64,000 bases of DNA from a virus. Made by a program: the position numbers and the translations under genes. The stretch lies in IMG/VR virus record IMGVR_UViG_3300025892_002699; one strand, written 5' to 3'. Of the stretch, positions 21,349 through 58,187 are shown one piece after another (the first letter of the stretch is position 1; every line of letters starts with the position of its first letter). The notes below the pieces were generated by a model. It made no database searches. It was not told the DNA's origin and worked only from the letters and a program-made list of their open reading frames with translations.

Positions 21349-21974
21349 TCGTAGAACTAGTAGACAAAATGGGTACAGACTTATCTGTGGTGAATGCCGC
21401 AAGAGTAAGTTACAGTAAAAACAAAGAAACATTTGAAGCATCAGATGAAAAATTAATCAAGTATCTTGCTGAACACAATCACTGGTCTCCTTTTGCTCAT
21501 GCATCATTACAATTTAGAATCAAAGCACCAATATTTGTTGCAAGACAACTTGTGAAACATCAAGTTGGTTTAGTATGGAATGAAGTATCAAGACGATACG
21601 TTGACTTTCCGCCTGAATTATACAGCACAAAAACATGGAGAGGTAGACCACAAAATTCTAAACAAGGCAGTGCTGGCGAAATTGAATTAGATCCCACAAT
21701 GAAACATATGATGGAAACAACAATGGAAAGTTGTCTAATTTTATACAATGCATTGATACAAAAAGGTGTAGCACCAGAACAGGCACGTATGGTTTTACCA
21801 CAAAATATGATGACCGAATGGTATTGGTCAGGCACACTATATGCCTTTGCTAGAGTTTGCAATCTACGTTGTGCTAAAGATACTCAAGAAGAAACACGTG
21901 ATATAGCAGATAGAATACATAATATTTGTAAAGAGGAGTTTCCAACAAGTTGGAAGTATTTAAAAAATGAGTAG
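21345..21974 (+). CDS. thyX: Flavin-dependent thymidylate synthase
   Basis: [21 protein letters not shown] and ARMVLP motifs. Confidence 0.93.
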
Positions 21975-29087: not shown

Positions 29088-29565
29088 AGCACCAGACGAT
29101 TTTTTAGAAAAGAAAGTTAACGATTTTGATTTTAATCAAATGGATGCTGAGAAAATATCTTCAGAAATGTTTGATATAATGAAAAAATATGAAGGTGTTG
29201 GACTTGCCGCAAACCAAGTAGGCATAGACGCACAAATCTTTATCATGGGAGAAGATAAACCCATGACCATTATCAATCCTTTGGTAACAGAAGTCAGCAC
29301 AAATCAAGTGGAAATGATGGAAGGTTGTTTAAGTTTTCCTGGATTGTTTATGAAAGTAAAAAGACCAGACACAGTGGCAGTGAAATACCTTGACACACAA
29401 CAAAAAGAATGTATAATAAAGTTAGAAGGTTTTCATGCAAGAGTATTTCTTCATGAATACGACCATCTTCAAGGCATTACCTTTGATCAAAGAGTTTCAA
29501 AAATGCGTTTGGATATGGCAAGAAAGAAACAAGAAAAAATATTAAAAGGATTTATAAATGGTTGA
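29074..29565 (+). CDS. def: Peptide deformylase
   Basis: GVGLAANQVG, EGCLS and HEYDH motifs. Confidence 0.95.
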   Translation: MKLIKAPDDFLEKKVNDFDFNQMDAEKISSEMFDIMKKYEGVGLAANQVGIDAQIFIMGEDKPMTIINPLVTEVSTNQVEMMEGCLSFPGLFMKVKRPDTVAVKYLDTQQKECIIKLEGFHARVFLHEYDHLQGITFDQRVSKMRLDMARKKQEKILKGFING

Positions 29566-33088: not shown

Positions 33089-33664
33089 ATGTTGATCACG
33101 GAGATAGTAGAAGCACCAAATAAGACTGCGGCGTTTGCCTTTGGCAGAATGAATCCACCAACAGCAGGACACAAAAAAATTGGAGAAGTGATCAAAGCAC
33201 AACCAGGTGATCCTTTTATCTTTATCACTCACACTCAAAACGCAAAAACTGATCCTTTATCATTTGCACAAAAATTAACCTTTGCTCAAAAAATGTTTCC
33301 CATGATTAAAGTAGGAGACACAGCAGTGCGAACATGGGTACAAGCCATGCAGAAATTAGAACAAATGGGATATACAGATATCATCTATGTGGCAGGTTCT
33401 GACAGGGTAAATCAATTCAATGAATTGCTGAACAAATACAATGGCAAAGAATACAATTTCAATTCAATAAAAGTGGTGAGTGCAGGTGAAAGAGATCCGG
33501 ATGCACAAGGTCTAGAAGGCATGAGTGCTTCTAAAATGCGTGATTTAGCCGCTCGTGGAGACAAAAAAACTTTTATAAATGCTGTTCCTATTGACCCTAA
33601 AACAGCAGAAGAGATGTATAATCAAGTGAGAACAGGACTCAAACTAAATCCTGTAACTGTATAA
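33089..33664 (+). CDS. Cytidylyltransferase-like (HxGH) nucleotidyltransferase with CTS-like N-terminus
   Basis: FGRMNPPTAGH, VAGSDR and MSASKMR motifs; starts MLITEIVEA. Confidence 0.82.
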   Translation: MLITEIVEAPNKTAAFAFGRMNPPTAGHKKIGEVIKAQPGDPFIFITHTQNAKTDPLSFAQKLTFAQKMFPMIKVGDTAVRTWVQAMQKLEQMGYTDIIYVAGSDRVNQFNELLNKYNGKEYNFNSIKVVSAGERDPDAQGLEGMSASKMRDLAARGDKKTFINAVPIDPKTAEEMYNQVRTGLKLNPVTV

Positions 33665-40566: not shown

Positions 40567-40893
40567 ATGAAGTATATGGTTGACATTGACAACACAATTT
40601 GTTATAATGAAAACAGTAACTATGTAGACAGTAAGCCAGACCTTGTTCGCATAGCGAAACTTAACGCACTGTACGATAAAGGCAACGAAATACATTATTG
40701 GACAGCACGAGGTGGTAATTCAGGCAAAGACTGGACTGAACTTACACATCAACAGTTAAAGGATTGGAATGTAAAGCACACTTCAATCACAATGAAAAAA
40801 CCGGTGTACGATGTCTGGATAGATGACAGAGCCATAAATGCAACAGACTTTTTTGGCGGATATGAGTTGAGAACAACAGACGAAGGAATATGA
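40567..40893 (+). CDS. Small HAD phosphatase (capsule-biosynthesis-phosphatase-like)
   Basis: VDIDNTI, YWTARG, KP and WIDDRA motifs; start corrected to 40567. Confidence 0.8.
   Translation: MKYMVDIDNTICYNENSNYVDSKPDLVRIAKLNALYDKGNEIHYWTARGGNSGKDWTELTHQQLKDWNVKHTSITMKKPVYDVWIDDRAINATDFFGGYELRTTDEGI
40580..40608 (+). promoter_or_regulatory. sigma70 consensus TTGACA-N17-TATAAT with TGn extension, inside the HAD gene
   Basis: Exact consensus overlapping the DxD codons; would drive guaC. Confidence 0.5.
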
Positions 40894-41942
40894 GAATAGA
40901 TTATAACATACATTTAGATTACTCAGACGTACTATTACAACCTAAAAGATCAACATTAAATTCAAGACGTGATGTAGATATCATGCGTGAGTTTAAATTT
41001 AAAAACAGTGGCAAGACTCTTTCATATGTGCCGATCATGGCATCGAACATGGATGGTGTTGGCACATTTTCAATGGCAAGAGTGCTACAAGAATTTAAAA
41101 TGCTTACAGTAATTAGAAAGCATTACACTATAGATGATTGGAAAAACGCCGCAGGCACAGGATTAAAATTCAAATATGTTTCTGCCTGTGTTGGTACAGG
41201 AGCGATGTGGGACGAAAACGCACAGGACTATCAAACATTGAAACAAGTGATGTCTGCATTTCCTGACATTCCATGTATTACAGTTGATGTTGCCAATGCT
41301 TATCATGAATCATTTGTGGATTTTGTTACAAAAATTAGAGAGGAGTATCCGGAAAAAGTTATCATTGCAGGTAACGTTGTTACTCCTAACATGACAGAAG
41401 AATTAATTATTAAAGGTGCAGATATTGTCAAGGTAGGAATTGGACCTGGATCAGTTTGCACAACAAGAACGCAGACAGGAGTAGGTGTTCCACAATTTTC
41501 AGCGATCATGGAATGTTCAGATGCCGCAAATGGTGTGGGAGGACATATCATTGCAGACGGTGGATGCACTCAGCCAGGTGATGTTGCCAAAGCATTGAGT
41601 GGTGGTGCACATTTTGTCATGCTAGGTGGAATGTTAGCAGGACATGATGAATCAGAATTAGAGTTAAAAGATGGCAAGAGAGTGTTTTATGGTATGGCTT
41701 CACAGACAGCATTAAGCACACATGGACAAAGAAAAGACGGATACAGAGGCGTAGAAGGCAAAACAGTAACACTACAAGACAAAGGCTCAGTTAAAGAAAC
41801 TGTTGAACAAATACTAGGTGGAGTCAGAAGCACTTGCACTTACATTGGAGCAAGACGAATCAAAGACATGCCTAAAGCGGCACACTTTGTAAGAGTCAAC
41901 AATGTGATCAACAGAGTCTTTGATAGATTCGAAACAAAATAA
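40890..41942 (+). CDS. guaC: GMP reductase
   Basis: DVANAY, KVGIGPGSVCTTR, ADGGC, FYGMAS and EGK motifs; no CBS domains. Confidence 0.9.
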   Translation: MRIDYNIHLDYSDVLLQPKRSTLNSRRDVDIMREFKFKNSGKTLSYVPIMASNMDGVGTFSMARVLQEFKMLTVIRKHYTIDDWKNAAGTGLKFKYVSACVGTGAMWDENAQDYQTLKQVMSAFPDIPCITVDVANAYHESFVDFVTKIREEYPEKVIIAGNVVTPNMTEELIIKGADIVKVGIGPGSVCTTRTQTGVGVPQFSAIMECSDAANGVGGHIIADGGCTQPGDVAKALSGGAHFVMLGGMLAGHDESELELKDGKRVFYGMASQTALSTHGQRKDGYRGVEGKTVTLQDKGSVKETVEQILGGVRSTCTYIGARRIKDMPKAAHFVRVNNVINRVFDRFETK

Positions 41943-45470: not shown

Positions 45471-45499
45471 TTGACTTTTCGTCAAAACCTAAATATAAT
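45471..45499 (+). promoter_or_regulatory. sigma70 promoter TTGACT-N17-TATAAT
   Basis: Consensus match; AGGAG leader. Confidence 0.8.
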
Positions 45500-46252: not shown

Positions 46253-46450
46253 ATGCAAAAAAAGAAAAAACCAGGCATAATAGATAGAATAGGTAAAATG
46301 CATTCTAAAGTTTTTACCTATGTGAGTAAAAAAGCAAAAACATCTAGACTTTGGGCTATACTACTGACAGTTCTTGTGATCTATGAATTGATAGAACACT
46401 TGATATATCCTTGGTTAGTTCCACTTTTAGCAATTAAGGCATTTGGATAA
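46253..46450 (+). CDS. Small membrane protein
   Basis: Start corrected to 46253; basic N-terminus and a TM segment. Confidence 0.65.
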   Translation: MQKKKKPGIIDRIGKMHSKVFTYVSKKAKTSRLWAILLTVLVIYELIEHLIYPWLVPLLAIKAFG

Positions 46451-47933
46451 TATGGATAAGAAAATCATACCCACTGACAACCTAACTGAAAAGCAAAAAG
46501 ACTACGCAACATTTTTGCCAGCATTAAGCAGTTTTTATGCTAGGGATCTTGGTAAAGCAAGACATCAAGAAGACTATATAAAACCTGAAAGAGTGCCTCA
46601 AAACTTTGAACATGGTGTTGAAGGAATGAATTACATGAGTTCCAAAGACACTTATTTCTATTACAAGTGGCATCTATATTCGGCGGGTCATGCTGATTTA
46701 AACATGGATCATTTTTCTGTAAGAGATGATATAATCAGAAACAGAGACAGAAAAGACAATTGGGTATTAGGTGATTCAGGGGGATTTCAGATAGGTAAAG
46801 GTGTTTGGGAAGGCGATTGGAAAGATCCTAATTGCCCTAAAGCCAAAAAGAAACGTGAACAGGTGTTGGCGTTTATGGATGGTAACATGGACTATGGTAT
46901 GATATTGGATATACCTGCTTGGGTATCTCGTTCTCCTGCGGGTGCGGCGGCAAGTAAAATCAGTTCATATCAAGAAGCAGTTGATGGCACAAAAATTAAC
47001 AATGACTATTTTATGAAAAATCGTAATGGTAATTGTAAGTTCTTAAATGTATTACAAGGTGAAAACTTTCAACAAGCAGATGATTGGTACACACAGATGA
47101 AACACTATTGTGATCCTAAACAATTTCCTAGCACACATTTTAATGGTTGGGCAATGGGTGGTCAAAATATGTGTGATATACACTTGGCATTGAAACGTTT
47201 GGTTGCTTTGAGATTTGATGGATTATTGGAAAAGGGTGTGCATGATGTTATGCACTTCTTAGGTACAAGTAAATTAGAGTGGGCAGTGTTGCTGACAGAC
47301 GTTCAGAGAGCGATTAGAAAGTATCATAATGAGAACTTTATGATCACATTTGATTGTGCTTCACCGTTCCTAGCCAGTGCTAATGGACAAATTTATACAG
47401 ATATTGAAATTGAAGACAAAAAGAAATGGACTTATAGAATGCAACCTAGTGTTGACAACAAGGATTTTTCATCTGAAACAAAATTGTTTAGAGAGGCTGT
47501 GTTAGAAAAAGGCATCTTTAATAATTTCATGGACAGTGCAATCAGCAAAAGACTGATGCTGAAAGACATCACTTGTTACAAGCCAGGTGATCTAAACAAA
47601 ATGGGCAACGAAGGTAAAACTTCTTGGGATTCATTCAGTTACACATTACAAATGGCACACAATGTTTGGACACACATTTCAGCAGTACAAGAAGCAAATC
47701 GTCAATACGATGCAGGATTAAATCCTAAAATGTTAGTGGAAGAAAAATTTGACAGAGTTGCTTTTAAAGATATTGTGAATGCTGTGTTTGCCACAAGCAG
47801 TAGAGATGAAGCAAATGCAGTAGTAGAAGAGTTTTCCAGATTCTGGATGTCAATTATTGGCACTAGAGGAGCAACAGGTAAAAAGACTGTGAATGCAAGT
47901 ACACAGTTTTCTAACTTATTTGAGGAGGCATAA
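46443..47933 (+). CDS. dpdA: TGT-fold base-exchange transglycosylase (DpdA-like)
   Basis: GDSGGFQ, MILDIP, VLQG, HFLG, TFDCASP and HN motifs; no CxCxxC; same cluster as folE and queE. Confidence 0.78.
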   Translation: MDNMDKKIIPTDNLTEKQKDYATFLPALSSFYARDLGKARHQEDYIKPERVPQNFEHGVEGMNYMSSKDTYFYYKWHLYSAGHADLNMDHFSVRDDIIRNRDRKDNWVLGDSGGFQIGKGVWEGDWKDPNCPKAKKKREQVLAFMDGNMDYGMILDIPAWVSRSPAGAAASKISSYQEAVDGTKINNDYFMKNRNGNCKFLNVLQGENFQQADDWYTQMKHYCDPKQFPSTHFNGWAMGGQNMCDIHLALKRLVALRFDGLLEKGVHDVMHFLGTSKLEWAVLLTDVQRAIRKYHNENFMITFDCASPFLASANGQIYTDIEIEDKKKWTYRMQPSVDNKDFSSETKLFREAVLEKGIFNNFMDSAISKRLMLKDITCYKPGDLNKMGNEGKTSWDSFSYTLQMAHNVWTHISAVQEANRQYDAGLNPKMLVEEKFDRVAFKDIVNAVFATSSRDEANAVVEEFSRFWMSIIGTRGATGKKTVNASTQFSNLFEEA

Positions 47934-47934
47934 T

Positions 47935-48108
47935 ATGGTACAACCAAAAGAAAGTAAAACATCAAGACACTTTAAATTTAGTATAGCAAAGAGTGGAATA
48001 CGATTTGTTGGATACGGCTTAATGGCATTTTCTGGAATCAATATTATTGCGTTAGCAGGCATTTTGTTGATAGGTGCAGAGGTGTTAGGAATAATGGAGG
48101 AGATGTAA
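47935..48108 (+). CDS. Small membrane protein
   Basis: GAGGAGG SD; start corrected to 47935. Confidence 0.65.
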   Translation: MVQPKESKTSRHFKFSIAKSGIRFVGYGLMAFSGINIIALAGILLIGAEVLGIMEEM

Positions 48109-48109
48109 A

Positions 48110-48301
48110 ATGGCAAATAAAAGTAAAAAAGTAAAAGCAATAGAAAAAGAGTACCACTGGTACAAAGGCAAAGTAGATGAAATGGAATCTGAACGTTCAT
48201 ATGACAGATCATGGGACGGGAAAGAATTGCTTTTAAAATTTAAAAAAATGAAACTGTTTTTAAAAACACAGTTGAAGAAAATGCAGGAAACATTACAATA
48301 A
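48110..48301 (+). CDS. Hypothetical helical protein
   Basis: GGAGG SD; coupled to the next gene. Confidence 0.7.
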   Translation: MANKSKKVKAIEKEYHWYKGKVDEMESERSYDRSWDGKELLLKFKKMKLFLKTQLKKMQETLQ

Positions 48302-49212
48302 TGAAAAGTTTGGTTGTTGGGTTAGGGTTCGGACAGTTATACGTTGACATTCTAAAAAGAATGGGGCATGAAGTGATCACTGTTGATATAAATCCTGATG
48401 CTAATGGAGACTTTACTGAACTCACCACAGCCATAAGTGCTCATGCACCATTTGACACTGCTCATATTTGTGTGCCTAATCATTTGCATTACAAGACAGC
48501 ATTAAAATTAGCAGAACACACAAAGATTGTGTTTGTAGAAAAGCCAGGAGTTGAAACAATCAATCACTGGAGATTGCTTACGAACCTAAATAAGTCCACA
48601 AGATTTATGATGACAAAGAACAATCAATGGAGAAATAATATAAAAGATATCACAAAAAATTGTGAAGCAAGTGATTTGATACAGATTAATTGGGTTAATA
48701 AAAATAGAATTCCTGGACCAGGAACATGGTTTACAGATAAGAGCAAAGCATTTGGAGGAGTGAGCAGAGATCTATTACCTCACTTGATGAGTATAATGAT
48801 GTCTGTGAACAAGAACACTTATCAAGATTTTAAAGTTAAAAAATATCATACAGAGCAAAGATGGAACTTGTCGGATTGTACAGGTACAGATTATGGTGTT
48901 GTTAATGAAAATGGAGTTTATGATGTGGATGATTCAGCCACTATGGAATTGACAGATGGTAACAAAACCTATATACTGTATGCTAATTGGAAAAATAACT
49001 TACACGATGATATGGCTATACATTTTTACAAAGACGGAGAATCGCATTTAGAATCAATATCTTTAGGATTATGTCCAGAACAAGCATATGAAGAAATGAT
49101 TAAAAACAGTTTGATACATCTAGAAGATGATATGTTTTGGAACAACCAACTAGAACAAGATTTATACATACAGGAAAAAATTAATGACGAAAGTAAAGAT
49201 ATTATACACTGA
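48301..49212 (+). CDS. Gfo/Idh/MocA family oxidoreductase
   Basis: VVGLGFG Rossmann motif, ICVPNHLH and VEKP. Confidence 0.85.
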   Translation: MKSLVVGLGFGQLYVDILKRMGHEVITVDINPDANGDFTELTTAISAHAPFDTAHICVPNHLHYKTALKLAEHTKIVFVEKPGVETINHWRLLTNLNKSTRFMMTKNNQWRNNIKDITKNCEASDLIQINWVNKNRIPGPGTWFTDKSKAFGGVSRDLLPHLMSIMMSVNKNTYQDFKVKKYHTEQRWNLSDCTGTDYGVVNENGVYDVDDSATMELTDGNKTYILYANWKNNLHDDMAIHFYKDGESHLESISLGLCPEQAYEEMIKNSLIHLEDDMFWNNQLEQDLYIQEKINDESKDIIH

Positions 49213-50086
49213 AGGCAAAGGCGAATTCAAAGAAGGTGAATTTGATGTTCCCGATATCATGCCTAATCAAATAAGAGTAAAAAGTATTTTTACTGGCGTA
49301 TGTAGAAGCGATATTGATATGATGAACGGCGACTTTGGTCCACTTCCTATGAATATGCAAGGTCATGAAGGTTTAGGTGAAGTATTAGAAATAGGCAAGG
49401 ACGTAAAAGATGTCAACATTGGAGACTATGTTGCAACACGAGGCGAGCCTGCATATGCTGATCAGTACAATGCAGACATAGGAACTTATGTAAATGTTCC
49501 AGAGGCAGACCCTAAATACATTATAGAACCAGTTGCTTGTGGTTTGAATGTGGTAATGCAAGAAGAACATCAATTTGAAAAACGTAACAGTAAAGAATCA
49601 AGAATTGCTATTATAGGCAGTGGATTTTTAAGTTGGGTTGTGTATCAATATCTAAATGCAAATTATTTCTTTCAAATAGATGTAATAGGCAGTCATAACA
49701 AAGAACGTTGGGGCGATAATTTGAAAAACTCATTTGAAGGGACATACGACATTGTGATAGATTTAAACACAAGAGACGAAGTGTTTGTGAGAGATATCAT
49801 AAAACCACAAGGATTGATTGTGCTTGGAGCAGAAAAAACAAATAAAATCACAACATCATTCAGTAAACTGTTGTGGAATGCTGTTACAGTGATTTTTCCA
49901 AGTCCGAGACAAAAAGACTTTCATAGATGCATGAAGATGGCAGTAAACATGATTGAAAAAGGTGCTTTAAACATAGACAAATTTTGGAGCATGGGGTATG
50001 ATAGAAAAACTGAATGGCAAGATGCTTTTAAAGAAGGCAATCAAAGAATGCCAGGATACAGCAGAGGATACATAGAATGGCTTTAG
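49184..50086 (+). CDS. Zn-dependent medium-chain (sugar/polyol) dehydrogenase
   Basis: GVCRSD, GHEGLG, EPVAC and IIGSGF motifs. Confidence 0.85.
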   Translation: MTKVKILYTEGKGEFKEGEFDVPDIMPNQIRVKSIFTGVCRSDIDMMNGDFGPLPMNMQGHEGLGEVLEIGKDVKDVNIGDYVATRGEPAYADQYNADIGTYVNVPEADPKYIIEPVACGLNVVMQEEHQFEKRNSKESRIAIIGSGFLSWVVYQYLNANYFFQIDVIGSHNKERWGDNLKNSFEGTYDIVIDLNTRDEVFVRDIIKPQGLIVLGAEKTNKITTSFSKLLWNAVTVIFPSPRQKDFHRCMKMAVNMIEKGALNIDKFWSMGYDRKTEWQDAFKEGNQRMPGYSRGYIEWL

Positions 50087-50604
50087 ACACAGCAAAAAGA
50101 AAACAGGTAATATACTTCACAGGCACAGAGATTGAAAACACAATAGCAAAAGGCTGGCAAACATTGTTTGTGGTTGGTACACGTCCAGTAGATGAAATTG
50201 CAAAATTGGCAACACAACATAATGCAAAACACATTTACTTTGGAACAAGTCAAAGTTTTGTGATTAATACCCCAGAAGATTTGAAACCATGGCACGAAAT
50301 GATCCAGTCATTGTTAGACAAAGATTTTTGGGTTACACTTGATTTTGGTATAGAATATATGGAAACTGTTACAAGCACAGGTTTAATGAGTTATAAAAAG
50401 TTTATTCCAATGATAAGTGCCAAAATTCCCAACATCTACAAAGTAAATGGTAATGCTACTCTTAAAATAGATGATGTGACGTGGGGACATTCAAACACAG
50501 GTGTTTGGAGCAGGAATCTTAATGAAATTACAAAAGATATGCACTATACAGATTGGAAAGAATATGTGGGGGACACAGTAATTGACGTTGACACAGACGA
50601 ATAA
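50077..50604 (+). CDS. Hypothetical protein in the modification cluster
   Basis: Overlapping ORF; no motif recognised. Confidence 0.75.
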   Translation: MALDTAKRKQVIYFTGTEIENTIAKGWQTLFVVGTRPVDEIAKLATQHNAKHIYFGTSQSFVINTPEDLKPWHEMIQSLLDKDFWVTLDFGIEYMETVTSTGLMSYKKFIPMISAKIPNIYKVNGNATLKIDDVTWGHSNTGVWSRNLNEITKDMHYTDWKEYVGDTVIDVDTDE

Positions 50605-50616
50605 AATTGCTATAAT
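50588..50616 (+). promoter_or_regulatory. sigma70 promoter TTGACA-N17-TATAAT, leaderless geometry
   Basis: The -35 box lies inside the upstream CDS; the -10 box ends 5 nt before the ATG at 50622. Confidence 0.75.
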
Positions 50617-50621
50617 TAATT

Positions 50622-51005
50622 ATGAATAAAAAAACATTTATATGGGTAACATTTAAAAAAGAAGGCATTCATAAATATCCTGCGGCATTGGATGATCCAA
50701 AGTTAGCAACAGGTGATGAATATGATGTATCATTTTTAGGATATCCTCACAGACATATATTTCATTTTAAAGTAGAAATAGAAGTATTTCACGATGATCG
50801 AGACATCGAATTTATTCAATTCAAAAGATGGTTAGAAAAACTGTATGCAGAAAAAACTTTACAGTTAGATTATAAATCTTGCGAAATGATAAGTGATGAT
50901 CTATATGAAACAATTACTAAAAGATATCCAGGTAGAGAGATTATCATCAACGTTAGCGAAGATGGTGAGAATGGTAGTGAGACCATCTACCATGTTGAGG
51001 ACTAG
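50622..51005 (+). CDS. QueD-like T-fold protein (LxxxHRHxF motif; QueD or DpdL-type)
   Basis: FLGYPHRHIFHF and SCEMI motifs. Confidence 0.7.
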   Translation: MNKKTFIWVTFKKEGIHKYPAALDDPKLATGDEYDVSFLGYPHRHIFHFKVEIEVFHDDRDIEFIQFKRWLEKLYAEKTLQLDYKSCEMISDDLYETITKRYPGREIIINVSEDGENGSETIYHVED

Positions 51006-51008
51006 TCC

Positions 51009-51176
51009 TTGACATACGTGTTCGGCATTATTGCTTTTGTTTGTCTGATAGGGTATAGTATTACTATGCCTCATCCATTGACAGGCAATGGCAATGAAAT
51101 GCTGAGTGACATTTTCTTTATGTCATTCATAGCATTTGCCGGATTAAGTTTTATTTTTAATATGAAAGACCAATGA
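51009..51176 (+). CDS. Small two-TM protein (TTG start), not in the ORF track
   Basis: GAGG SD at 50997-51000; ATGA overlap with the glycosyltransferase. Confidence 0.55.
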   Translation: MTYVFGIIAFVCLIGYSITMPHPLTGNGNEMLSDIFFMSFIAFAGLSFIFNMKDQ

Positions 51177-52249
51177 CAGTTTATATTGTAGATTTAGAAG
51201 CAGTTGACACAAGGTACACGAAAGAGTGGAAGTACAATCTTCCTAAACAACTCAAACGTGCTACTAATTCAGATGTTGTATCTATCAGTGGTGGCGATAC
51301 TCCACAAGCAACTACACCTGGAGCATTTTTAAACTTTGGTGGTACTAATGTTTACAAAGCCAATCAAATGCAACAAATAGGTAAACTGTTCTGCGATGGC
51401 AAAATAAAAGATGGCGATTACTTCTTGTACACAGACGCATGGAATCCAACAGTACTACAATTGAAGTATATGGCAGAACTGTTAAAAGTAAAAATTAAAA
51501 TAGGTGGTATGTGGCACGCCGGTTCATATGATCCACAAGACTTCTTAGGTAGACTGATTGGAGATAAACCTTGGGTAAGAAACACAGAACAGGCAATGTT
51601 TGATGTGTTTGATAATAATTTTTATGCCACAGACTTTCATATTGATTTATTCTGTGAAACATTTACAAAAGCAGAACAGTATGTAGGTTTAAATGCTCCA
51701 AAAGGTAACAAGGTATGTAGAGTAGGTTGGCCCATGGAGTACATGGAACACACTTTGGATATATATCAGAACATGGATAAGAAAAATATTATTCTTTTTC
51801 CGCACAGATTGGCTCCTGAAAAGCAACCTGCTATATTTCAAGATTTAAAAAATTCTTTACCACAATATGAATTTATTACGTGTCAAGAAAAGCCTTTAAC
51901 TAAAAATGAATATCACAACTTAATAGGTCAAGCAAAATTAATGTTCTCTGCTAATTTACAGGAAACATTAGGTATCAGTTGGTATGAAGGTGCTATACTT
52001 GGAGTTATTCCAATGATGCCTGATAGATTGAGTTATAAAGAAATGGCACTAAATGAATTCTTATATCCAAGCGATTGGACCGAGAATATGGAAACTTACA
52101 AAAAAAATAAAAAACAGTTAATGGCAAAGATTGAAGACTACATGGAAAATTATTCAAAATATGCTCCTGCTGTTTTAAAACAAAAAACAAAACTGAGAGA
52201 TCAATATTTTTCAGGTAACAAACTATATGGAGTAGTATCAAATGGCTAA
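51173..52249 (+). CDS. GT-B fold glycosyltransferase
   Basis: IILFPHRLAPEK and QETLGISWYEG (GT4-like ExxGxxxxE) motifs. Confidence 0.78.
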   Translation: MTVYIVDLEAVDTRYTKEWKYNLPKQLKRATNSDVVSISGGDTPQATTPGAFLNFGGTNVYKANQMQQIGKLFCDGKIKDGDYFLYTDAWNPTVLQLKYMAELLKVKIKIGGMWHAGSYDPQDFLGRLIGDKPWVRNTEQAMFDVFDNNFYATDFHIDLFCETFTKAEQYVGLNAPKGNKVCRVGWPMEYMEHTLDIYQNMDKKNIILFPHRLAPEKQPAIFQDLKNSLPQYEFITCQEKPLTKNEYHNLIGQAKLMFSANLQETLGISWYEGAILGVIPMMPDRLSYKEMALNEFLYPSDWTENMETYKKNKKQLMAKIEDYMENYSKYAPAVLKQKTKLRDQYFSGNKLYGVVSNG

Positions 52250-52805
52250 AAAAGGTTTATCATCACCAGTACCACAAAATCATCTAGCATCTAATGGTGT
52301 GTATGTTTTAATGGAAGAAATTACAATGGAGTCTTGTAGAAATTGTTTAACTTGGATTATGAATCATAATCTAGCAGAAACAAGACTTCCACAATTAACT
52401 TTAATTATTAATTCACCAGGTGGCGATGTTCACGCCGCATTTGCATTAATTGACACAATGAAAGCAAGTACTATACCAATTAAAACTGTGGGATTAGGAT
52501 TAATTGCTTCGTGTGGATTTTTATTATTCATAGCAGGGAAAAAAGGTTCAAGAATATTAACACCTAACACTGCAATACTATCACACCAATACAGTTGGGG
52601 CAGTGCAGGAAAAGAACATGAACTGTATGCAAGAGTAAAAGAGTTTGAATTGAGTACAAACAGAATGATTGAACACTACAAAAAATGTATTGGTATGAGC
52701 GAGAAGCAAATAAGAGAAATTTTACTTCCACCGCAAGACGTTTGGTTATCTGCCAAAGAAGCAAAGAGACTTAAAATTTGTGACAAAGTAGAAGAGTTAT
52801 ACTAA
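52242..52805 (+). CDS. clpP: ClpP-like protease subunit
   Basis: INSPGG; catalytic Ser in IASCG, His in LSHQ and Asp in QDVWLSA. Confidence 0.85.
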   Translation: MAKKGLSSPVPQNHLASNGVYVLMEEITMESCRNCLTWIMNHNLAETRLPQLTLIINSPGGDVHAAFALIDTMKASTIPIKTVGLGLIASCGFLLFIAGKKGSRILTPNTAILSHQYSWGSAGKEHELYARVKEFELSTNRMIEHYKKCIGMSEKQIREILLPPQDVWLSAKEAKRLKICDKVEELY

Positions 52806-53209
52806 TGCGTGAAGACTTGATGGTGCAACAACAAGTTTCAAACACTTGGCAACACATGGTGGGTGTTATTTGCTTGAATCAAACTAATCGTAAACAAGTC
52901 AAAGCAGTACTGCCTAAACTGTTTAAAAAATGGGCAACACATACAGAACTTCTCAGTTCTGCAAACATTTCTGATCTTGAGAAAATACTCAAGCCATTAG
53001 GAATGCAAAAAAAGAAAGCAGAAAGAATATACAGAATGAGTCAACAATTTAGCGGTTGGAACGGTGATGATGCCACAGAGTTATACGGCATAGGCAAATA
53101 CGGTTCAGACAGTTATAGATTGTTTTATAAAAATGAAGTACCAACGAATGTTGGTGATCATGAACTTAACAGATATATCATAGAGGAGTTAAATTTATAT
53201 GGCGAGTAA
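52805..53209 (+). CDS. MBD4-like HhH DNA glycosylase (stand-alone catalytic domain)
   Basis: LNQT, KPLG, ELYGIGKYGSDSYRLF and DHELNRY closely follow the MBD4 glycosylase signature. Confidence 0.8.
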   Translation: MREDLMVQQQVSNTWQHMVGVICLNQTNRKQVKAVLPKLFKKWATHTELLSSANISDLEKILKPLGMQKKKAERIYRMSQQFSGWNGDDATELYGIGKYGSDSYRLFYKNEVPTNVGDHELNRYIIEELNLYGE

Positions 53210-53585
53210 AAAAGATAAAGACGAAGTTAAAGAAGTATGGAGTGTGAGTGAAGATTCAATTACAGGAGGTTGGGCACCACAGGCAGAAAATTATACAGTT
53301 TCTTATGAAACAGAACCTATGGGAGTAACACATGGCACATTAGATTCCACGTATTCAGGACCAATTGACTTTGGAGCAGATGCAGGTAAAGGGTTTGAAA
53401 ATATGACATTTAAGGATTACTTACCTGGGAAACCTTTTGAAGATACAGTACCAACTTTAGAAACTATAGATAAAGTATGTGAAGATTATCCTTCATTACA
53501 AATAGCATACGAAAAGTTTAAGAACGTTTGGAGAATCTGTTACACAGATTACTGTTCTAAAAACCCAGATGAGGAGAACTATTAA
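53199..53585 (+). CDS. Hypothetical acidic protein
   Basis: Coupled ORF. Confidence 0.7.
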   Translation: MASKKDKDEVKEVWSVSEDSITGGWAPQAENYTVSYETEPMGVTHGTLDSTYSGPIDFGADAGKGFENMTFKDYLPGKPFEDTVPTLETIDKVCEDYPSLQIAYEKFKNVWRICYTDYCSKNPDEENY

Positions 53586-54034
53586 TGGACAATAAAGTTT
53601 ATTTTACAATGATACAGATTCGAAACGGTATGGATAAAATCTGTGAGCAAATGGGTAAAGATGGATTTGAACCTGACCTTGTTATGGGTATTAACAGAGG
53701 TGGATGTATTCCGGGTGTGTATATGAGTCATCGATTACATATACCACATGAAGCATTGGATGTTAGATTGAGAGATCATAAAGCAAAACCAGATTTACGT
53801 AATCTAGAAAAAGCCTATGCATTTCAAAAAAAAATATTGATAATAGACGACATCAATGATTCTGGTAATACATTCAAATTCATTCGTGAAAATTTTGGTG
53901 GAGAAGATAGAGTAAAAACAGCCGCAATCATACACAATGAGCCAAGCAAGTTTGACACATTAGATTATTGGTGCTATAATATAAACAAAGAGGAAAATCC
54001 GCAGTGGATTGTATTTCCTTGGGAACAGTGGTAA
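53585..54034 (+). CDS. Type I phosphoribosyltransferase (purine PRT-like)
   Basis: GINRGG, ILIIDDINDSGNT and WIVFPWE motifs. Confidence 0.87.
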   Translation: MDNKVYFTMIQIRNGMDKICEQMGKDGFEPDLVMGINRGGCIPGVYMSHRLHIPHEALDVRLRDHKAKPDLRNLEKAYAFQKKILIIDDINDSGNTFKFIRENFGGEDRVKTAAIIHNEPSKFDTLDYWCYNINKEENPQWIVFPWEQW

Positions 54035-54417
54035 TGATAAAAGTAGACACATTAGAAAAAGCAAGAGAAGATGGCAGAGCACCTTGGACAGACGTTGTGT
54101 ATGATTTTAAAGATATGATGTGGTACAATGACGGATATCCAGTTACAGAAGGACATTCTTTGATAGTGCCTAAAGAAGCAACACAAGAAAGACTTATTAG
54201 ATGTGTTGAACTTGCAATTAAAATAGGCAATGATAATGTTGCCAAAGGTGTTGTTGACGGATACAATGTTGGGATCAATGTTGGTGAAGCGGCAGGACAA
54301 ACTGTGATGTATCCACACGTTCATCTTATTCCTAGGAAAAAAGGTGATTGTGAAAATCCCAAAGGTGGTGTAAGGAATGTTATACCAGGCAAAGGGGATT
54401 ACACAAAAAATGAATAA
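54034..54417 (+). CDS. HIT family nucleotide hydrolase
   Basis: GHSLIVPK and GQTVMYPHVHLIPR (first triad His replaced by Tyr); start corrected to 54034. Confidence 0.85.
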   Translation: MIKVDTLEKAREDGRAPWTDVVYDFKDMMWYNDGYPVTEGHSLIVPKEATQERLIRCVELAIKIGNDNVAKGVVDGYNVGINVGEAAGQTVMYPHVHLIPRKKGDCENPKGGVRNVIPGKGDYTKNE

Positions 54418-54976
54418 TGAACCATTTATCAAAGTTTATGATGATTTAATACCTGCTTATTTGCAAGATCATCTTGAGTTGATTACATTAGGTGTTAAGA
54501 GCAAAGGTGAAGAGTTTATTGACCCCAGTGTTGATTTTAAATGCAAATATGAAATAACTGCTAAAGAAACAAATCAACCGCCATTAAGTTTTGTACATTT
54601 GCTTAAATCACATACATCGATCAGTAAACACCTTGACAATTTCGGAATGGTGGCTCAGGCTTTGTGCAATGTAAATGATTTAATATTGCAAAATATTATG
54701 TTAGCAAGAGTGTTTATCACAGTGCCACACCAAACAGATTTAAAACATTATGCACCTCACATTGATATAGAAGTTGAACACATGGTTGTGATTTATTTTA
54801 TTAATGATGCTGATGGTGACACAGTATTTTTTGACAATGATGGAAAAATTATAAAATCAGTTGAACCAAGAAAAGGTAGAGCAATTATCTTTGATGGTAA
54901 AATAAAGCATGGAGGCGGTATTCCTAAAAACGGCCCACGTTGTATTGCAAACTTTGATTTAAAGGTAAAACAATGA
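54410..54976 (+). CDS. 2OG-Fe(II) oxygenase
   Basis: PHID (HxD), GDTVF, distal His in KH, and RCIANF; start corrected to 54410. Confidence 0.8.
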   Translation: MNNEPFIKVYDDLIPAYLQDHLELITLGVKSKGEEFIDPSVDFKCKYEITAKETNQPPLSFVHLLKSHTSISKHLDNFGMVAQALCNVNDLILQNIMLARVFITVPHQTDLKHYAPHIDIEVEHMVVIYFINDADGDTVFFDNDGKIIKSVEPRKGRAIIFDGKIKHGGGIPKNGPRCIANFDLKVKQ

Positions 54977-55791
54977 GTAGAACACTTTTTATAGGCGATA
55001 GCCACACAGTAGGATATAAGACTATTGAAGGTCAGATTGGACCTGGCAGTTTTACATTCTGGAACGATAATAATTACGCAGTAAAATATTCTGAAATACA
55101 TGAAAAGGATATCGTAATTTATGCTCAACCAGGAGCAACCAATAACTTATATACAACCTGGTTGGCTAATATGTTTTCTAAATACAATGATATAGATGAA
55201 GTGTTTATTTGTTTGGCTCCGTTGAATAGAATTGAATTAAGTTTCGATCCAAACTTAGAATATGAAGCAGGTCCGTTAGATCAATTTACATATGAACATC
55301 CGGAATCAACTGAGAATGTTAGAAAATTTTCTGATCAACCTATTGCTGGAAGCACTGTGCAGATATTACAGAAGCCTGTGGGAGATGATTATAAAAAAAT
55401 ACCAAGTATTGGCTTTTCAGCAGAACAAGGATTGACTTCACCTGATTTGAGAAAAGACTCTTATATGTCTGTAAAACTATTTTATGAATGTAACACAATA
55501 ATAGAAAAAAGAGAATTTCTTAAAAATATGTATATGTGGGATAAGATGTGTACAGAAAACAACACAAAGTTGTATGTGTTTAATTTTAGATCCAGAGGCG
55601 TATGGCCCAGTGAAACAGATTATTTTGGTAAGATTGATACCATGAAAAGAGCCAACCAGAGTGTGGAACAACATCTAAATACATTAGGGCACAAAGCAGA
55701 AGATTATTTTATTGAAGACAAAGAACATTTTAATAATCAATATCATAATTTAATAGCAACAGAATATTTGAAATGGCTAAAAGAATATTAA
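54973..55791 (+). CDS. SGNH/GDSL-like protein
   Basis: FIGDSH and C-terminal DKEH (DxxH). Confidence 0.65.
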   Translation: MSRTLFIGDSHTVGYKTIEGQIGPGSFTFWNDNNYAVKYSEIHEKDIVIYAQPGATNNLYTTWLANMFSKYNDIDEVFICLAPLNRIELSFDPNLEYEAGPLDQFTYEHPESTENVRKFSDQPIAGSTVQILQKPVGDDYKKIPSIGFSAEQGLTSPDLRKDSYMSVKLFYECNTIIEKREFLKNMYMWDKMCTENNTKLYVFNFRSRGVWPSETDYFGKIDTMKRANQSVEQHLNTLGHKAEDYFIEDKEHFNNQYHNLIATEYLKWLKEY

Positions 55792-56381
55792 TAGCAGGCG
55801 ACAGTTTTGGTTGTGAATGGCCCAACGGTGAAGGCATTGGATGGCCTTTGATTCTATCTGAAACCCATGCTGTAAACAACGTGGCTCAGGCTGGAGTGGG
55901 AGAATACAAAATATTAAAACAACTGCACGATTTAAGTGCCCGTGATTCTTATTGGGTAAACAATTACGATTGCGTGATTGTGTGTCATACAAGTCCTAGC
56001 AGAATACACACACCCAAACATCCTGTACACAAACAAGGTTTACATGCAGATTGTGATTTAATATATTCAGACATTACCAACAAGTTTGATTGGTTCAATC
56101 CTAGATTGAAAACTGCGAAAAATTGGTTTTATCATCATTATGACGATGACTACCAAAAAGATCTATATCAAATATTACGTGAAGAAATAAACAGATATGT
56201 TACAATTCCATATTTGGCTGTGGATAATTTTAGTATCAGTAACCAATTTGCTAAAGAAACACACACATTGGATTTAACAGATATTTGGCCCGAACACCGA
56301 GGCGAAGTCAATCACTATACCAAAGAAGGCAACCAAATTGTACTTAAACAAATCATTGACAAATTGGATAAAATTTGTTAA
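55773..56381 (+). CDS. SGNH/GDSL-like protein
   Basis: IAGDSF, NVAQAG and VNHY motifs. Confidence 0.65.
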   Translation: MAKRILIAGDSFGCEWPNGEGIGWPLILSETHAVNNVAQAGVGEYKILKQLHDLSARDSYWVNNYDCVIVCHTSPSRIHTPKHPVHKQGLHADCDLIYSDITNKFDWFNPRLKTAKNWFYHHYDDDYQKDLYQILREEINRYVTIPYLAVDNFSISNQFAKETHTLDLTDIWPEHRGEVNHYTKEGNQIVLKQIIDKLDKIC

Positions 56382-56384
56382 TAT
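56356..56384 (+). promoter_or_regulatory. sigma70 promoter TTGACA-N17-TAATAT (TGn-extended) for the folE-queE operon
   Basis: Embedded in the 3' end of the upstream CDS; AGGAG leader. Confidence 0.6.
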
Positions 56385-56411
56385 TAATAATATAAAAATA
56401 GGAGAAAAACA

Positions 56412-56624
56412 ATGGCAAGTAGACAACACATATATGACGCAATGGTGGCACACGCCAAAGGACATATAGAAAAACACGCAACAAATGTGCAAATTTATAT
56501 GGAAAAGGCTGTGGGAATTGGTGAACACGGAGACATTCTTGAAACTATAGAAAAAGAATTAAAAGTGATTGCTGAATATCATGATCAATTAGAAGTTTTA
56601 GAAAAATATATCAAGAGGGACTAA
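56412..56624 (+). CDS. Hypothetical helical protein
   Basis: SD present; coupled to folE. Confidence 0.75.
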   Translation: MASRQHIYDAMVAHAKGHIEKHATNVQIYMEKAVGIGEHGDILETIEKELKVIAEYHDQLEVLEKYIKRD

Positions 56625-57298
56625 TGAAAGCATCAGAACGAATAAGACAAAGGCTGAAGGAAAAAGATATTAGATTTCACAGTAATGATAATATCGCTGA
56701 TTTTATAGAACAAGGTGAACTGGAAGAACTTCAAAAAGAAGTTGAAGAAAATTTTGCAGGAGTTCTTGATGCATTGGTGATTGATACTGAAAATGATCAC
56801 AACACAAAAGAAACTGCAAGACGTGTTGCTAAAATGTACATAAAAGAAATATTTGGTGGTAGATTTGTTCAACCGCCTAAAGTTACTTCTTTTCCTAATA
56901 TGGGATATAGAAGTTTATACACTAGCGGTCCGATTAGTGTTAAGTCTACGTGTGCTCACCATTTTCAGAACATTGTAGGAAAATGTTGGGTTGGTGTATT
57001 GCCGGAGAAGGAAGTAATAGGACTTTCTAAATTTAATAGAATAGTTCATCATATTGCAGAACGTCCGCAGATACAAGAAGAGATGACAACACAGATTGCA
57101 GAAGCATTACAGAAATATGCAAAAACTCCTAACGTGGCTGTATTGATAAAAGCAGAACATCATTGTATGACACACAGAGGTGTAAGAGAACATGAATCAG
57201 ATATGACAACTGCTATCATGCTAGGTGCATTTGATAGCCATGCTCCACTTAAGAAAGAGTTTTATGATATTTGTATGAGTATGAAGGGTCATGAGTAA
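56624..57298 (+). CDS. folE: GTP cyclohydrolase I
   Basis: TARRVAK, STCAHH, GLSKFNR, RPQIQEE and HHCM..RG motifs. Confidence 0.95.
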   Translation: MKASERIRQRLKEKDIRFHSNDNIADFIEQGELEELQKEVEENFAGVLDALVIDTENDHNTKETARRVAKMYIKEIFGGRFVQPPKVTSFPNMGYRSLYTSGPISVKSTCAHHFQNIVGKCWVGVLPEKEVIGLSKFNRIVHHIAERPQIQEEMTTQIAEALQKYAKTPNVAVLIKAEHHCMTHRGVREHESDMTTAIMLGAFDSHAPLKKEFYDICMSMKGHE

Positions 57299-58187
57299 AC
57301 TTAGATATTCAGAAGCATTTTATTCCATACAGGGCGAAGGTCGTTTTGTGGGAGTACCAAGTGTATTCTTGAGAACATTCGGTTGTAATTTTCGTTGTAT
57401 GAACTTTGGTTTAGATAAAGAACCAAACAGAGCAGAAAAACTCAAACAAGGAATAAAATTCAATCCGGAAGTTAAAAAGTTATTGGATGAAGGGATTACT
57501 GACAAAGTGGATAAGTTTGAAGACTTGCCAATAGTACACACAGGCTGTGACACTTATGCCAGTATATACCCTGAGTTCAAAAAGTATATGATGGACAAGA
57601 CCATTGACGAAGTGGTGGATCATGTGTTATCATTAACTCCTGAAGGAAAGTGGACTATGTCTAATGGACAAGATGTACACTTTATATTAACAGGTGGTGA
57701 GCCTTTGTTAGGATGGCAAAGAACTTACATAGAATTATTTGAACATCCTAGAATGAAGGATTTAAAAAATGTTACTTTCGAAACAAATACAACGCAGACT
57801 TTACATAAGGATTTTGAAGATTATCTCAGAAAACAAGACAGATTCCAGGTCACTTGGTCATGCTCTCCAAAACTTTCCGTATCAGGTGAACCTTGGGACA
57901 CTGCTATCAAGCCTGAAATTGCTAGGTCTTATAATGGGATTCCTAATAGCGAAATGTATTTCAAATTTGTGGTTGCTGATGCTTCCGATGTTGATGAAGT
58001 TGCACAGGCAGTTGCCGAGTTCAATCAAGTGGGAATCAACGTTCCCGTTTATGTCATGCCACTGGGAGGAAGATCAGAAACATACAGCCTCAACACAAAA
58101 AAGGTTGCCGAACTTGCAATGGCAAGAGGATGGAGATACACTCCAAGACTACACGTCGACATATTCGGAAATGCCTGGGGGACTTGA
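57291..58187 (+). CDS. queE: 7-carboxy-7-deazaguanine synthase (radical SAM)
   Basis: FYSIQGEG, FLRTFGCNFRC...GCDT, LTGGEP, ETN, SPK and RLH motifs. Confidence 0.9.
   Translation: MSKLRYSEAFYSIQGEGRFVGVPSVFLRTFGCNFRCMNFGLDKEPNRAEKLKQGIKFNPEVKKLLDEGITDKVDKFEDLPIVHTGCDTYASIYPEFKKYMMDKTIDEVVDHVLSLTPEGKWTMSNGQDVHFILTGGEPLLGWQRTYIELFEHPRMKDLKNVTFETNTTQTLHKDFEDYLRKQDRFQVTWSCSPKLSVSGEPWDTAIKPEIARSYNGIPNSEMYFKFVVADASDVDEVAQAVAEFNQVGINVPVYVMPLGGRSETYSLNTKKVAELAMARGWRYTPRLHVDIFGNAWGT

Follow-up and report, generated by a model that had tools for sequence, protein, structure and literature searches.

FolE, QueD and QueE make 7-carboxy-7-deazaguanine (CDG), and DpdA puts 7-deazaguanines into DNA. Some phages additionally encode DpdL, a QueD paralog in which the CxxxHGH motif has turned into LxxxHRHxF and which was proposed to be a CDG decarboxylase giving 7-deazaguanine (Cui, Hutinet et al. 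2023, NAR, PMC10516641). Phages with DpdL carry DpdA, FolE, QueD and QueE and not QueC; examples are phiST, in which all G is replaced by dDG (the deoxynucleoside of 7-deazaguanine), and ACP17 (PMC10516641). Expression of ACP17 DpdL and DpdA in E. coli, with no glycosyltransferase (GT), gave no dDG, and the authors suggested that extra enzymes may be needed (PMC10516641). Another phage, PA5oct, contains a modified G to which no structure was assigned, and its virion DNA resists restriction at G-containing sites (PMC12191111). Here, we analyzed a gene cluster at positions 46443-58187 of a 64-kb stretch of viral DNA (64,000 nucleotides of IMG/VR record IMGVR_UViG_3300025892_002699; the whole stretch is referred to as the window), in which genes of this kind are accompanied by a GT. 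The best explanation of the cluster, to which we would give about an even chance, is that it forms a phage module for DNA hypermodification, based on the QueC-less DpdL-type pathway, in which the GT glycosylates the deazaguanine.

Protein searches and gene order indicate that the source phage is a marine relative of the Pseudomonas jumbo phage PA5oct group (Arenbergviridae, Wroclawvirus); at the DNA level, a search of GenBank phages gave nothing close to the window. The window and the PA5oct-like phage vB_Pa-PAC2 (PAC2) have in common a run of genes comprising polB, the clamp, a protein resembling tRNA-guanine transglycosylase (TGT), the GT, a T-fold protein, a phosphoribosyltransferase (PRTase), QueE, RNase H and an ATPase. 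Amino-acid identity over this run is 31-58%, except for the PRTase (a partial 23% match); within the syntenic block it is 34% for the TGT-like DpdA, 43% for the GT and 58% for the T-fold protein, DpdL. PAC2 also resembles the window in having a cassette of two dehydrogenases and a 175-amino-acid (aa) protein and in having no QueC. It differs in that the cassette, FolE and QueD are found at other loci, and in that the 24-kb PAC2 stretch compared contains no homolog of the HIT, SGNH, 2-oxoglutarate (2OG) oxygenase, ClpP and HhH-GPD proteins of the window. We also counted genes in marine relatives, using GT-centred loci with enough flanking DNA, which gave denominators of 58 for the upstream part of the cluster and 39 for the downstream genes. 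Because these loci come from related phages, together they count as roughly one observation.

The phiST system (PMC10516641) is like that of the window in having FolE, QueD, QueE, the DpdL motif, a DpdA of the TGT superfamily and no QueC, and in the position of the cluster beside a DNA polymerase. It differs in having no GT, no PRTase and no 175-aa protein, and its DpdA3 has 259 aa. ACP17, also named as a DpdL phage in that study, carries a GT and a 175-aa protein of the window type. All genes of the window cluster lie on the + strand and are closely spaced or overlapping. The DpdL gene (50622..51005; phrog_17812, E 1.5e-35) encodes a 127-aa QueD paralog, a proposed CDG decarboxylase, that reads LGYPHRHIF, fitting LxxxHRHxF. 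It aligns end to end with phiST CGPG_00067 (36% identity, tblastn E 1e-10), is 59% identical to its ACP17 homolog (tblastn E 1e-37) and is present in 58/58 marine relatives. The original prediction had called this protein QueD-like, a label that gives way to DpdL on the motif and on homology to the phiST and ACP17 proteins. We likewise rejected the T-fold protein as the missing QueD, as it has the DpdL signature and relatives carry a separate canonical QueD.

FolE, a GTP cyclohydrolase I (56624..57298; PF01227, E 3.9e-46), and QueE, a radical-SAM CDG synthase (57291..58187; phrog_2076, E 1.2e-51), are each present in 39/39 relatives. The window open reading frames (ORFs) compared or scanned include no canonical QueD (PF01242). 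In relatives, QueD lies either beside a GMP reductase gene or about 52 kb upstream, and the latter position would be outside the window. QueC was not found among the scanned window ORFs, and PF06508 (QueC) matched neither PAC2, whose genome is complete, nor any of four related contigs (90-148 kb); the same search matched 14/14 control genomes, 12 of them above the curated cut-off. The absence of QueC from PAC2 and the related contigs is as the published DpdL pathway expects. The absence of queC and queF had been claimed from the sequence at the outset; the first part stands for the scanned ORFs, and for QueF no scanned window ORF matched in searches that included none dedicated to that family. 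This is the genomic context of DpdL-type phages, with DpdA, FolE and QueE present, QueD in relatives and QueC not found, and by gene content the base pathway is of the published, QueC-less DpdL type (PMC10516641). We are confident that the cluster is a DpdL-type DNA deazaguanine module. Because the T-fold protein is predicted to be DpdL, the expected aglycone is 7-deazaguanine (DG) or CDG.

Two further enzymes connect the cluster with purine metabolism. A xanthine/guanine-type purine PRTase (53585..54034; PF00156, E 4.7e-12; NF006613 xanthine PRTase, E 4e-12) is present in 39/39 marine relatives and also stands beside QueE in PAC2/PA5oct, in the metagenomic contig L090 and in the cyanophage BUCT-ZZ01. 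Each DpdA exchange frees one guanine, and GTP is the precursor of the pathway, so the simplest reading of the PRTase would be guanine salvage. A GMP reductase/IMPDH-family enzyme (40890..41942, + strand; PF00478, E 9e-70) is encoded 5 kb upstream of the cluster. In a relative of 77% identity (G004, L084), a canonical QueD gene lies directly before the GMP reductase homolog, an arrangement suggesting that purine interconversion and the deazaguanine pathway are connected.

The first gene of the cluster (46443..47933; 496 aa, with a possible start at the ATG at 46452) is predicted to encode a divergent DpdA-type DNA guanine transglycosylase, an assignment based on the TGT fold of its AlphaFold (AF2) model. 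The model, built from an alignment of 56 diverse homologs, has a predicted local distance difference test (pLDDT) score of 92.5, and its best Foldseek matches in the PDB are all TGT (Z. mobilis TGT, probability 1.0, E 4e-6, template-modeling score 0.53 by target). D111-S112-G114 (DSGG; block DSGGFQ), D156, H271 and D304 (FDCAS) are invariant in the 56 homologs; D111, D156 and D304 are candidates for the catalytic and substrate-binding aspartates of TGT enzymes. By sequence the family is hard to place: 0/56 members match PF01702, a direct sequence search of the PDB with the protein gave no match, and a weak profile match, which sets residues 98-221 on TGT 98-231, belongs to TGT matches that are marginal (E ~0.9). 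On the model, the protein is predicted to fold as a tRNA-guanine transglycosylase of a subfamily missed by Pfam. A profile of the family matches the DpdA proteins of PAC2 (E-165), Phosso (E-122) and ACP17 (1e-8), and it matches neither phiST DpdA nor X1 DpdA. Because the profile is blind to phiST DpdA3 (CGPG_00065 type), and because the lengths differ (259 aa in phiST, 496 aa in the window), we filed the window DpdA as a putative subfamily separate from phiST-type DpdA3. Two ENA contigs of about 33 kb from integrase-bearing small phages (L091, L092) carry a lone 443-aa member of the window subfamily, without GT, DpdL, FolE or QueE; these phages presumably rely on host-made deazaguanines.

The gene at 51173..52249 encodes a 358-aa protein that, from its AF2 model (pLDDT 86.5) and motifs, is predicted to be a GT4-type glycosyltransferase of the GT-B fold. 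Neither Pfam (including Glycos_transf_1 and Glyco_transf_4) nor NCBIfam nor PHROG returned a match for it, and a direct sequence search of the PDB was likewise negative. With Foldseek, the model matches BshA, MshA, glycogen synthase, PimA and ALG2 with probability 1.0, and the top PDB and Swiss-Prot structures are all GT-B, with GT4 enzymes leading. The C-terminal EX7E motif (E264-x7-E272) and R212 and K217, the basic pair for the nucleotide sugar, are invariant in alignments of 14 and 32 homologs, so the protein is probably an active sugar transferase. A predicted complex of DpdA with the GT scored 0.00 against a mark of 0.32, a result that weighs neither way. A distant paralog (27% identity) occurs in the Xanthomonas phage PhiXhv-15 (L185, 98820-113560), in the order GlmS, BshB-like deacetylase, GT and with no deazaguanine genes; this locus is possibly a different amino-sugar pathway for DNA or surface modification in Xanthomonas and Erwinia jumbo phages. 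The GT homologs of the PhiXhv and Ep026 phages, which have this GlmS/BshB-like context, were treated as a paralogous branch and left out of the co-occurrence counts.

Co-occurrence of the GT with dpdA in other genomes had been set beforehand as a refutation test, and the association was found in all three groups of loci considered. DpdA, DpdL and the 175-aa protein are present in 58/58 marine GT-centred loci, and PRTase, FolE and QueE in 39/39; in all 58, the GT has DpdA and/or DpdL as a neighbor. Beyond the marine group, the GT stands beside DpdA and/or DpdL in seven phage lineages with differing gene orders. In PAC2/PA5oct, the order is DpdA-GT-DpdL and the stop codon of DpdA overlaps the start of the GT, and in ACP17 it is QueD, FolE, 175-aa protein, DpdA, GT, DpdL, QueE. 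The remaining orders are glycosylase, DpdL, GT, one small ORF, FolE in Phosso; DpdL-DpdA-GT-FolE-PRTase-QueE in contig L090; GT-DpdA-DpdL-QueE in Xanthomonas phage X1; and, in Burkholderia phage BCSR5, DpdL, four other genes, GT, a 446-aa ORF (which only its position marks as a putative DpdA), a small ORF and QueE. The T4-like Synechococcus cyanophage BUCT-ZZ01 has DpdL followed by a GT homolog (hhalign 99.1%). The locus of this freshwater phage (L182, 59862-74215) comprises QueE, a xanthine-guanine PRTase (XGPRT), QueD, FolE, a 447-aa and a 416-aa protein, DpdL, the GT homolog and a 174-aa protein. Neither the profile of the DpdA family nor that of the GT matches the 447-aa or the 416-aa protein. 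Across these phages, the GT accompanies at least three DpdA subfamilies.

The same association extends to bacterial chromosomes. A profile scan of prokaryotes, with one genome per species, recovered GT homologs of 38-48% identity in Magnetospirillum, Methylobacterium, Pelagibacterium, Azospirillum, Sulfitobacter, Shimia, Roseobacter and others. The GT adjoins a DpdA-like gene in all 12 alphaproteobacterial chromosomal loci analyzed; DpdL is present in four of the 12, and Magnetospirillum has QueD as well. In nine of the 12, the GT is directly preceded by a member of one and the same gene family, of which the three members scanned match PF02592, the COG1738/YhhQ family of preQ0/queuosine-precursor transporters (PMC5372724). 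These loci resemble the bacterial Dpd restriction-modification island (dpdA-K; dPreQ0/dADG) in being chromosomal islands that carry an integrase and a DpdA-like transglycosylase; they differ in that the partner of DpdA is a GT4 enzyme plus a YhhQ-type transporter or DpdL, and not DpdB/DpdC. From the linkage in phages and bacteria taken together, the minimal conserved unit is GT, DpdA and either DpdL or a 7-deazapurine importer. It is very probable that the GT belongs functionally to the deazaguanine module. The islands themselves (L199-L218, for example L210:7492-10557 and L203:6324-12053), with the YhhQ-type transporter, the GT4 homolog and the DpdA-like gene, often have a MASE1 sensor kinase and a LuxR-type response regulator upstream and a tyrosine recombinase near; the Magnetospirillum island adds DpdL, QueD, a CoiA-like nuclease and a HEPN protein. 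They may be a cellular deazaguanine modification or restriction system.

The 175-aa protein (50077..50604), a core member of the marine group, has invariant KIDD and NPGVW blocks. We found no match for it in Pfam, NCBIfam, PHROG or PDB sequences and no usable match in the ESM Atlas, and direct comparisons were negative for a relationship to the PAC2 'epimerase domain' protein, phiST CGPG_00066 or the bacterial transporter. Its homolog in ACP17 (E 3.7e-49) lies directly upstream of DpdA, and its homolog in PAC2 (E 2.6e-64) is the third gene of the dehydrogenase cassette; this gene thus co-occurs with dpdA throughout the marine relatives and in ACP17.

Upstream of it in the window are two accessory dehydrogenases in overlapping genes. 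One is a Gfo/Idh/MocA-family NAD(P)-dependent sugar or cyclitol dehydrogenase (48301..49212; PF01408, E 1.7e-7), with weak NCBIfam matches to UDP-GlcNAc (N-acetylglucosamine) 3-dehydrogenase, glycoside 3-dehydrogenase and IolG. The other is a Zn-dependent medium-chain (MDR) dehydrogenase (49184..50086; PF08240 (ADH_N), E 4e-11), which shows the Cys and His-Glu ligands of a catalytic zinc and weakly matches, among others, the scyllo-inosose 3-dehydrogenase IolM. In the marine group and the PA5oct-like phages, the dehydrogenases always occur in a cassette with the 175-aa protein. In PAC2, the cassette lies at a distant locus as overlapping genes for the Gfo/Idh/MocA protein, the Zn-dehydrogenase (full-length and annotated 'ADH N domain') and the 175-aa protein, with 33/35/47% identity to the window. 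The original prediction had both dehydrogenases co-occurring with dpdA and together remodeling a sugar or cyclitol by oxidation and reduction. The weak family matches fit that chemistry, and the pair is present in PA5oct-like phages and in 14/58 marine relatives, 12 of which have a GT at least 70% identical to that of the window. However, no dehydrogenases were found in the GT-bearing phages ACP17, Phosso, X1, BCSR5 and BUCT-ZZ01 or in a GT-bearing 256-kb contig of the other marine clade, and five marine contigs have no Zn-dehydrogenase; the pair is better described as a lineage-specific elaboration. Because GT-bearing phages without dehydrogenases exist, the GT does not depend on them, and we rejected on distribution the idea that it requires them.

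Taken together, these genes suggest the following route. FolE and QueE, with a QueD encoded outside the window, would convert GTP to CDG, on which DpdL would act, by decarboxylation to 7-deazaguanine according to the published proposal. The TGT-fold DpdA would then swap 7-deazaguanine for guanine in the phage DNA after replication, and the xanthine/guanine-type PRTase, with GMP reductase, may return the freed guanine to the GTP pool that feeds the pathway. The GT, dependent on a nucleoside diphosphate (NDP) sugar, would glycosylate the deazaguanine, whether as a free base still to be inserted or once it is in DNA, so that the genome would carry a glycosylated 7-deazaguanine. The acceptor may be the exocyclic N2 amine, for which huimycin is a chemical precedent; the site is speculation on our part. 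The dehydrogenase/175-aa cassette and the HIT, SGNH and 2OG proteins would be lineage-specific additions, most likely tailoring the sugar or its donor. That the DNA base finally carries a sugar has, in our estimate, slightly less than an even chance. Somewhat more doubtful is the full proposal, in which the GT sugar sits on 7-deazaguanine, most plausibly at N2 or at the freed C7, in marine jumbo phages, PA5oct-like therapeutic phages, several phages of plant pathogens and the alphaproteobacterial islands, and in which the cassette, SGNH, HIT and 2OG proteins remodel the sugar in the window clade and PA5oct. It is just as possible that the GT modifies the base while it is still free, or that its product never enters DNA.

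Two known kinds of enzyme are useful for comparison. The T-even alpha- and beta-GTs, which act on 5-hydroxymethylcytosine (hmC), are likewise phage-encoded, NDP-sugar-dependent enzymes of the GT-B type that are tied to base modification and presumed to counter restriction. They differ in that hmC offers a hydroxymethyl acceptor, whereas the window GT is associated with a purine analog and has GT4 fold matches; no T4 glucosyltransferase was among its top 50 PDB matches. The N2 amine is common to DG, CDG and preQ0, and this would fit a GT serving both DpdL-type phages and transporter-type bacterial islands. HuiG, which we liken to the window GT by description and not by sequence, belongs to PF13439, which we take to be a GT4-type domain. 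In huimycin biosynthesis in Kutzneria albida, HuiG is proposed to put GlcNAc from UDP-GlcNAc on N2 of a 7-deazaguanine-derived base made by FolE, QueD and QueE (PMC7439116; bioRxiv 10.64898/2026.04.15.718813), which indicates that such an acceptor is feasible chemically and enzymatically. Huimycin differs in being a free secondary metabolite, and its cluster has QueC and a methyltransferase and is without DpdA.

Several points weigh against a glycosylated DNA base. The proposal is built on gene identities, folds, motifs and conserved linkage, and every chemical step after CDG is one that we infer. As 7-deazaguanine has no hydroxyl group, a T4-like O-glycoside would be impossible without further chemistry. 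The closest structural matches of the GT, BshA and MshA, act on small molecules and not on nucleic acids, and the GT family is not basic (isoelectric point (pI) 5.4-7.6), a property that does not separate a DNA-binding from a small-molecule enzyme. Three phages, phiST, RHph_I1_18 and Vibrio phage Bakedbeans, have DpdL and no such GT in a search with matching positive controls, and because phiST reaches full dDG with DpdL and DpdA, the GT is not needed for the DpdL pathway as such. Much of the synteny of the marine and PA5oct loci is inherited, so those loci are not independent. The decarboxylase activity of DpdL was proposed and never demonstrated, and heterologous expression failed (PMC10516641); the PA5oct study gave no mass for the modified G (PMC12191111). 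The modified G of PA5oct and the failed reconstitution with ACP17 DpdL and DpdA fit a requirement for the GT, and neither proves it.

An unlikely explanation, and the one of the alternatives that survives best, is that the DNA contains plain dDG or dCDG. The GT would then leave no sugar on DNA, or would glycosylate a protein, a host surface polymer or another base, and the dehydrogenases, HIT and SGNH proteins would be unrelated auxiliary metabolism located by chance in a hypervariable region of early genes. The dDG made by phiST without a GT and the small-molecule acceptors of the nearest structural neighbors are in line with this, as is the character of the DpdA-QueE region, a hot spot of gene gain and loss (ClpP in 5/39 relatives, 2OG oxygenase in 4/39 and HhH-GPD in 15/39). 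However, an unrelated GT would not be expected to keep its adjacency to DpdA/DpdL through rearrangements in eight phage lineages, nor to lie beside a DpdA-like gene in every bacterial locus analyzed, with a 7-deazapurine transporter in nine, and the invariance of EX7E and the R/K pair also speaks for a working sugar transferase.

We consider it improbable that the GT makes a free glycosylated 7-deazapurine, such as a huimycin- or dapiramicin-like antimetabolite or a storage or export form, and not a DNA base. The proposed transfer of GlcNAc by HuiG to N2 of a free 7-deazapurine would be a model for this, and a transporter and a LuxR-type regulator, both found in the bacterial islands, are frequent in secondary-metabolite clusters. 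However, characterized 7-deazapurine secondary-metabolite clusters are without DpdA (bioRxiv 10.64898/2026.04.15.718813), and here a DpdA-like gene is always adjacent. Moreover, YhhQ-family transporters are known as importers of queuosine precursors, and in PA5oct it is the DNA itself that is modified at G.

A nucleotide-level route like those to tubercidin and toyocamycin is less probable again. The PRTase would join CDG or 7-deazaguanine to phosphoribosyl pyrophosphate, the GMP reductase homolog and the HIT protein would process the nucleotide, the polymerase would incorporate a 7-deazapurine deoxynucleoside triphosphate, and the TGT-like protein would have another role. Tubercidin biosynthesis does begin at CDG, has no QueC step and involves a PRTase and an enzyme resembling GMP reductase; in the marine phages the purine PRTase is constant, it recurs beside QueE in four lineages, and the GMP reductase homolog lies 5 kb upstream, beside QueD in one relative. 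However, a DpdA-type transglycosylase is present, and salvage of the guanine that DpdA frees would account equally well for the PRTase, which among families matches xanthine PRTase best. In addition, ACP17, X1, BCSR5 and the bacterial islands have GT-DpdA(-DpdL) and no PRTase in the stretches examined (whole genomes were not searched), and all known deazaguanine DNA modifications have been argued to be post-replicative (Cui et al., PMC10516641).

A tRNA target, with a glyco-queuosine-like modification that protects or retunes tRNAs, had been raised as an alternative from the sequence and now seems very improbable. The transglycosylase has the fold of a tRNA-modifying enzyme, and QTMAN, a eukaryotic GT4 enzyme that mannosylates queuosine in tRNA, appears at ranks 14 and 20 of the structural matches of the GT, with scores no better than those of dozens of other GT4 enzymes. 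Against this, the cluster lies among replication genes (polB, clamp and RNase H), the DpdL pathway gives dDG in the DNA of phiST (PMC10516641), and it is virion DNA that resists restriction at G-containing sites in PA5oct (PMC12191111). Finally, a pteridine glycosyltransferase like the cyanobacterial UDP-glucose:tetrahydrobiopterin glucosyltransferase (BGluT), acting on a pterin branch of the FolE/PTPS pathway with the dehydrogenases reducing the pterin side chain, can hardly be credited: BGluT structures (9v0l, 9v0w) are at ranks 21 and 37 of the fold search and FolE, T-fold proteins and two dehydrogenases are near. However, generic GT4 enzymes score at least as well as BGluT, a pterin branch has no use for QueE and DpdA, the constant partners of the GT, and in the bacterial islands the GT comes with a 7-deazapurine transporter and without FolE.

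All genes that the original prediction listed for the cluster are present, and apart from the renaming of DpdL the list needs three additions, all between the GT and the PRTase. These are a ClpP-family protease subunit (52242..52805; PF00574, E 8.5e-29; 5/39 relatives), probably a sporadic insert outside the pathway; a small, variable protein of the HhH-GPD DNA glycosylase fold (52805..53209; PF00730, E 2.8e-9; 15/39); and an acidic 128-aa protein (53199..53585; pI 4.3; 13/39) with no Pfam, PHROG or NCBIfam match. No sequence match to the HhH-GPD protein of the window was found for the protein annotated as a glycosylase in the equivalent place in Phosso. Downstream of the PRTase are a HIT-family (Fhit-like) nucleotide hydrolase or transferase (54004..54417, with a likely start at the ATG at 54034; PF01230, E 2.2e-11; 34/39) and a sporadic 2OG-Fe(II) oxygenase (54377..54976; PF13640, E 1.4e-6; 4/39). 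Of the two SGNH proteins originally listed, the first (54973..55791; 272 aa; 18/39), a candidate SGNH-type hydrolase or acyl-esterase with GDSH and DxxH motifs, has both blocks, with G8, S10, H11 and D249-x-x-H252 invariant (SGNH block I and block V), and its ESM Atlas neighbors are viral, some with DUF6071. The second (55773..56381; 202 aa; 5/39), a putative SGNH protein, shows only the GDS block, as an N-terminal GDSFG, and has no family match. The idea that the SGNH and 2OG enzymes decorate the sugar further is weakened by the sporadic occurrence of the oxygenase and the second SGNH protein. The remaining ORFs are two small basic ones after DpdA (47893..48301; 71 and 63 aa; pI ~10), present in 3/58 and 24/58 relatives, respectively, and a small conserved one before FolE (56412..56624; 70 aa; 33/39). 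Two matches to the sigma-70 consensus at 12/12 positions (TTGACA-17-TATAAT plus extended TG), which are consensus matches only, lie at 50588-50616 (+), just before DpdL, and at 53952-53980, inside the PRTase end and before HIT. A further match, at 11/12 positions, is found at 45471-45499 and precedes the clamp gene.

The window has a G+C content of 33-41% and almost every gene on the + strand. It also encodes T4-like baseplate and tail proteins, a clamp loader, a B-family polymerase, a ThyX-type thymidylate synthase (21345-21974) and an Fe/Mn superoxide dismutase (240-794; PF02777/PF00081), whose PAC2 homolog (158309-158857) lies about 1 kb downstream of the second PTPS-like gene of PAC2. The phage carries its own DnaJ and ClpB (28239-31807) in addition to ClpP, and a 173-aa fragment (18053-18574) matches the NTPase domain of DNA polymerase III alpha, although the phage has a full PolB. 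A weak cytidylyltransferase-like protein (33089-33664; PF01467, E 0.004) has a counterpart in a 'CTP transf-like' gene upstream of the polymerase in PAC2 (198081-198653); if the match holds, this protein could supply the GT with a nucleotide-activated donor. IMG/VR holds 269 relatives of the DpdA and at least 590 of the GT, and metagenome proteins include about 7,950 close DpdA relatives, some on contigs of up to 333 kb. Near-identical phage DNA is present in marine metagenomes of at least seven studies. This phage group is very abundant.

The literature searched on deazaguanines, PA5oct, ACP17 and jumbo phages describes no GT in such clusters and no glycosylated deazaguanine in DNA, and a 2026 genome-mining preprint left out dpdA-containing regions on purpose (bioRxiv 10.64898/2026.04.15.718813). 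The base pathway is already known; the conserved GT partner, the cassette of 175-aa protein and dehydrogenases, and the bacterial GT-DpdA-transporter islands appear not to have been described. To our knowledge, DNA glycosylation is known only on hydroxymethyl-pyrimidines, and none of the eight 7-deazaguanines known in DNA bears a sugar. If our proposal is right, glycosylated deazaguanine would add a new class to the DNA hypermodifications and be the first known glycosylated purine analog in DNA. It would explain the modified G of PA5oct (a jumbo phage already tried in models of airway infection) and the failed reconstitution of DpdL and DpdA in E. coli. It would also provide a concrete candidate target for defenses that sense modification, such as END nucleases. 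In bacterial chromosomes, the presence of the GT-DpdA unit beside a 7-deazapurine transporter suggests a cellular use of the modification, in epigenetics or in restriction-modification.

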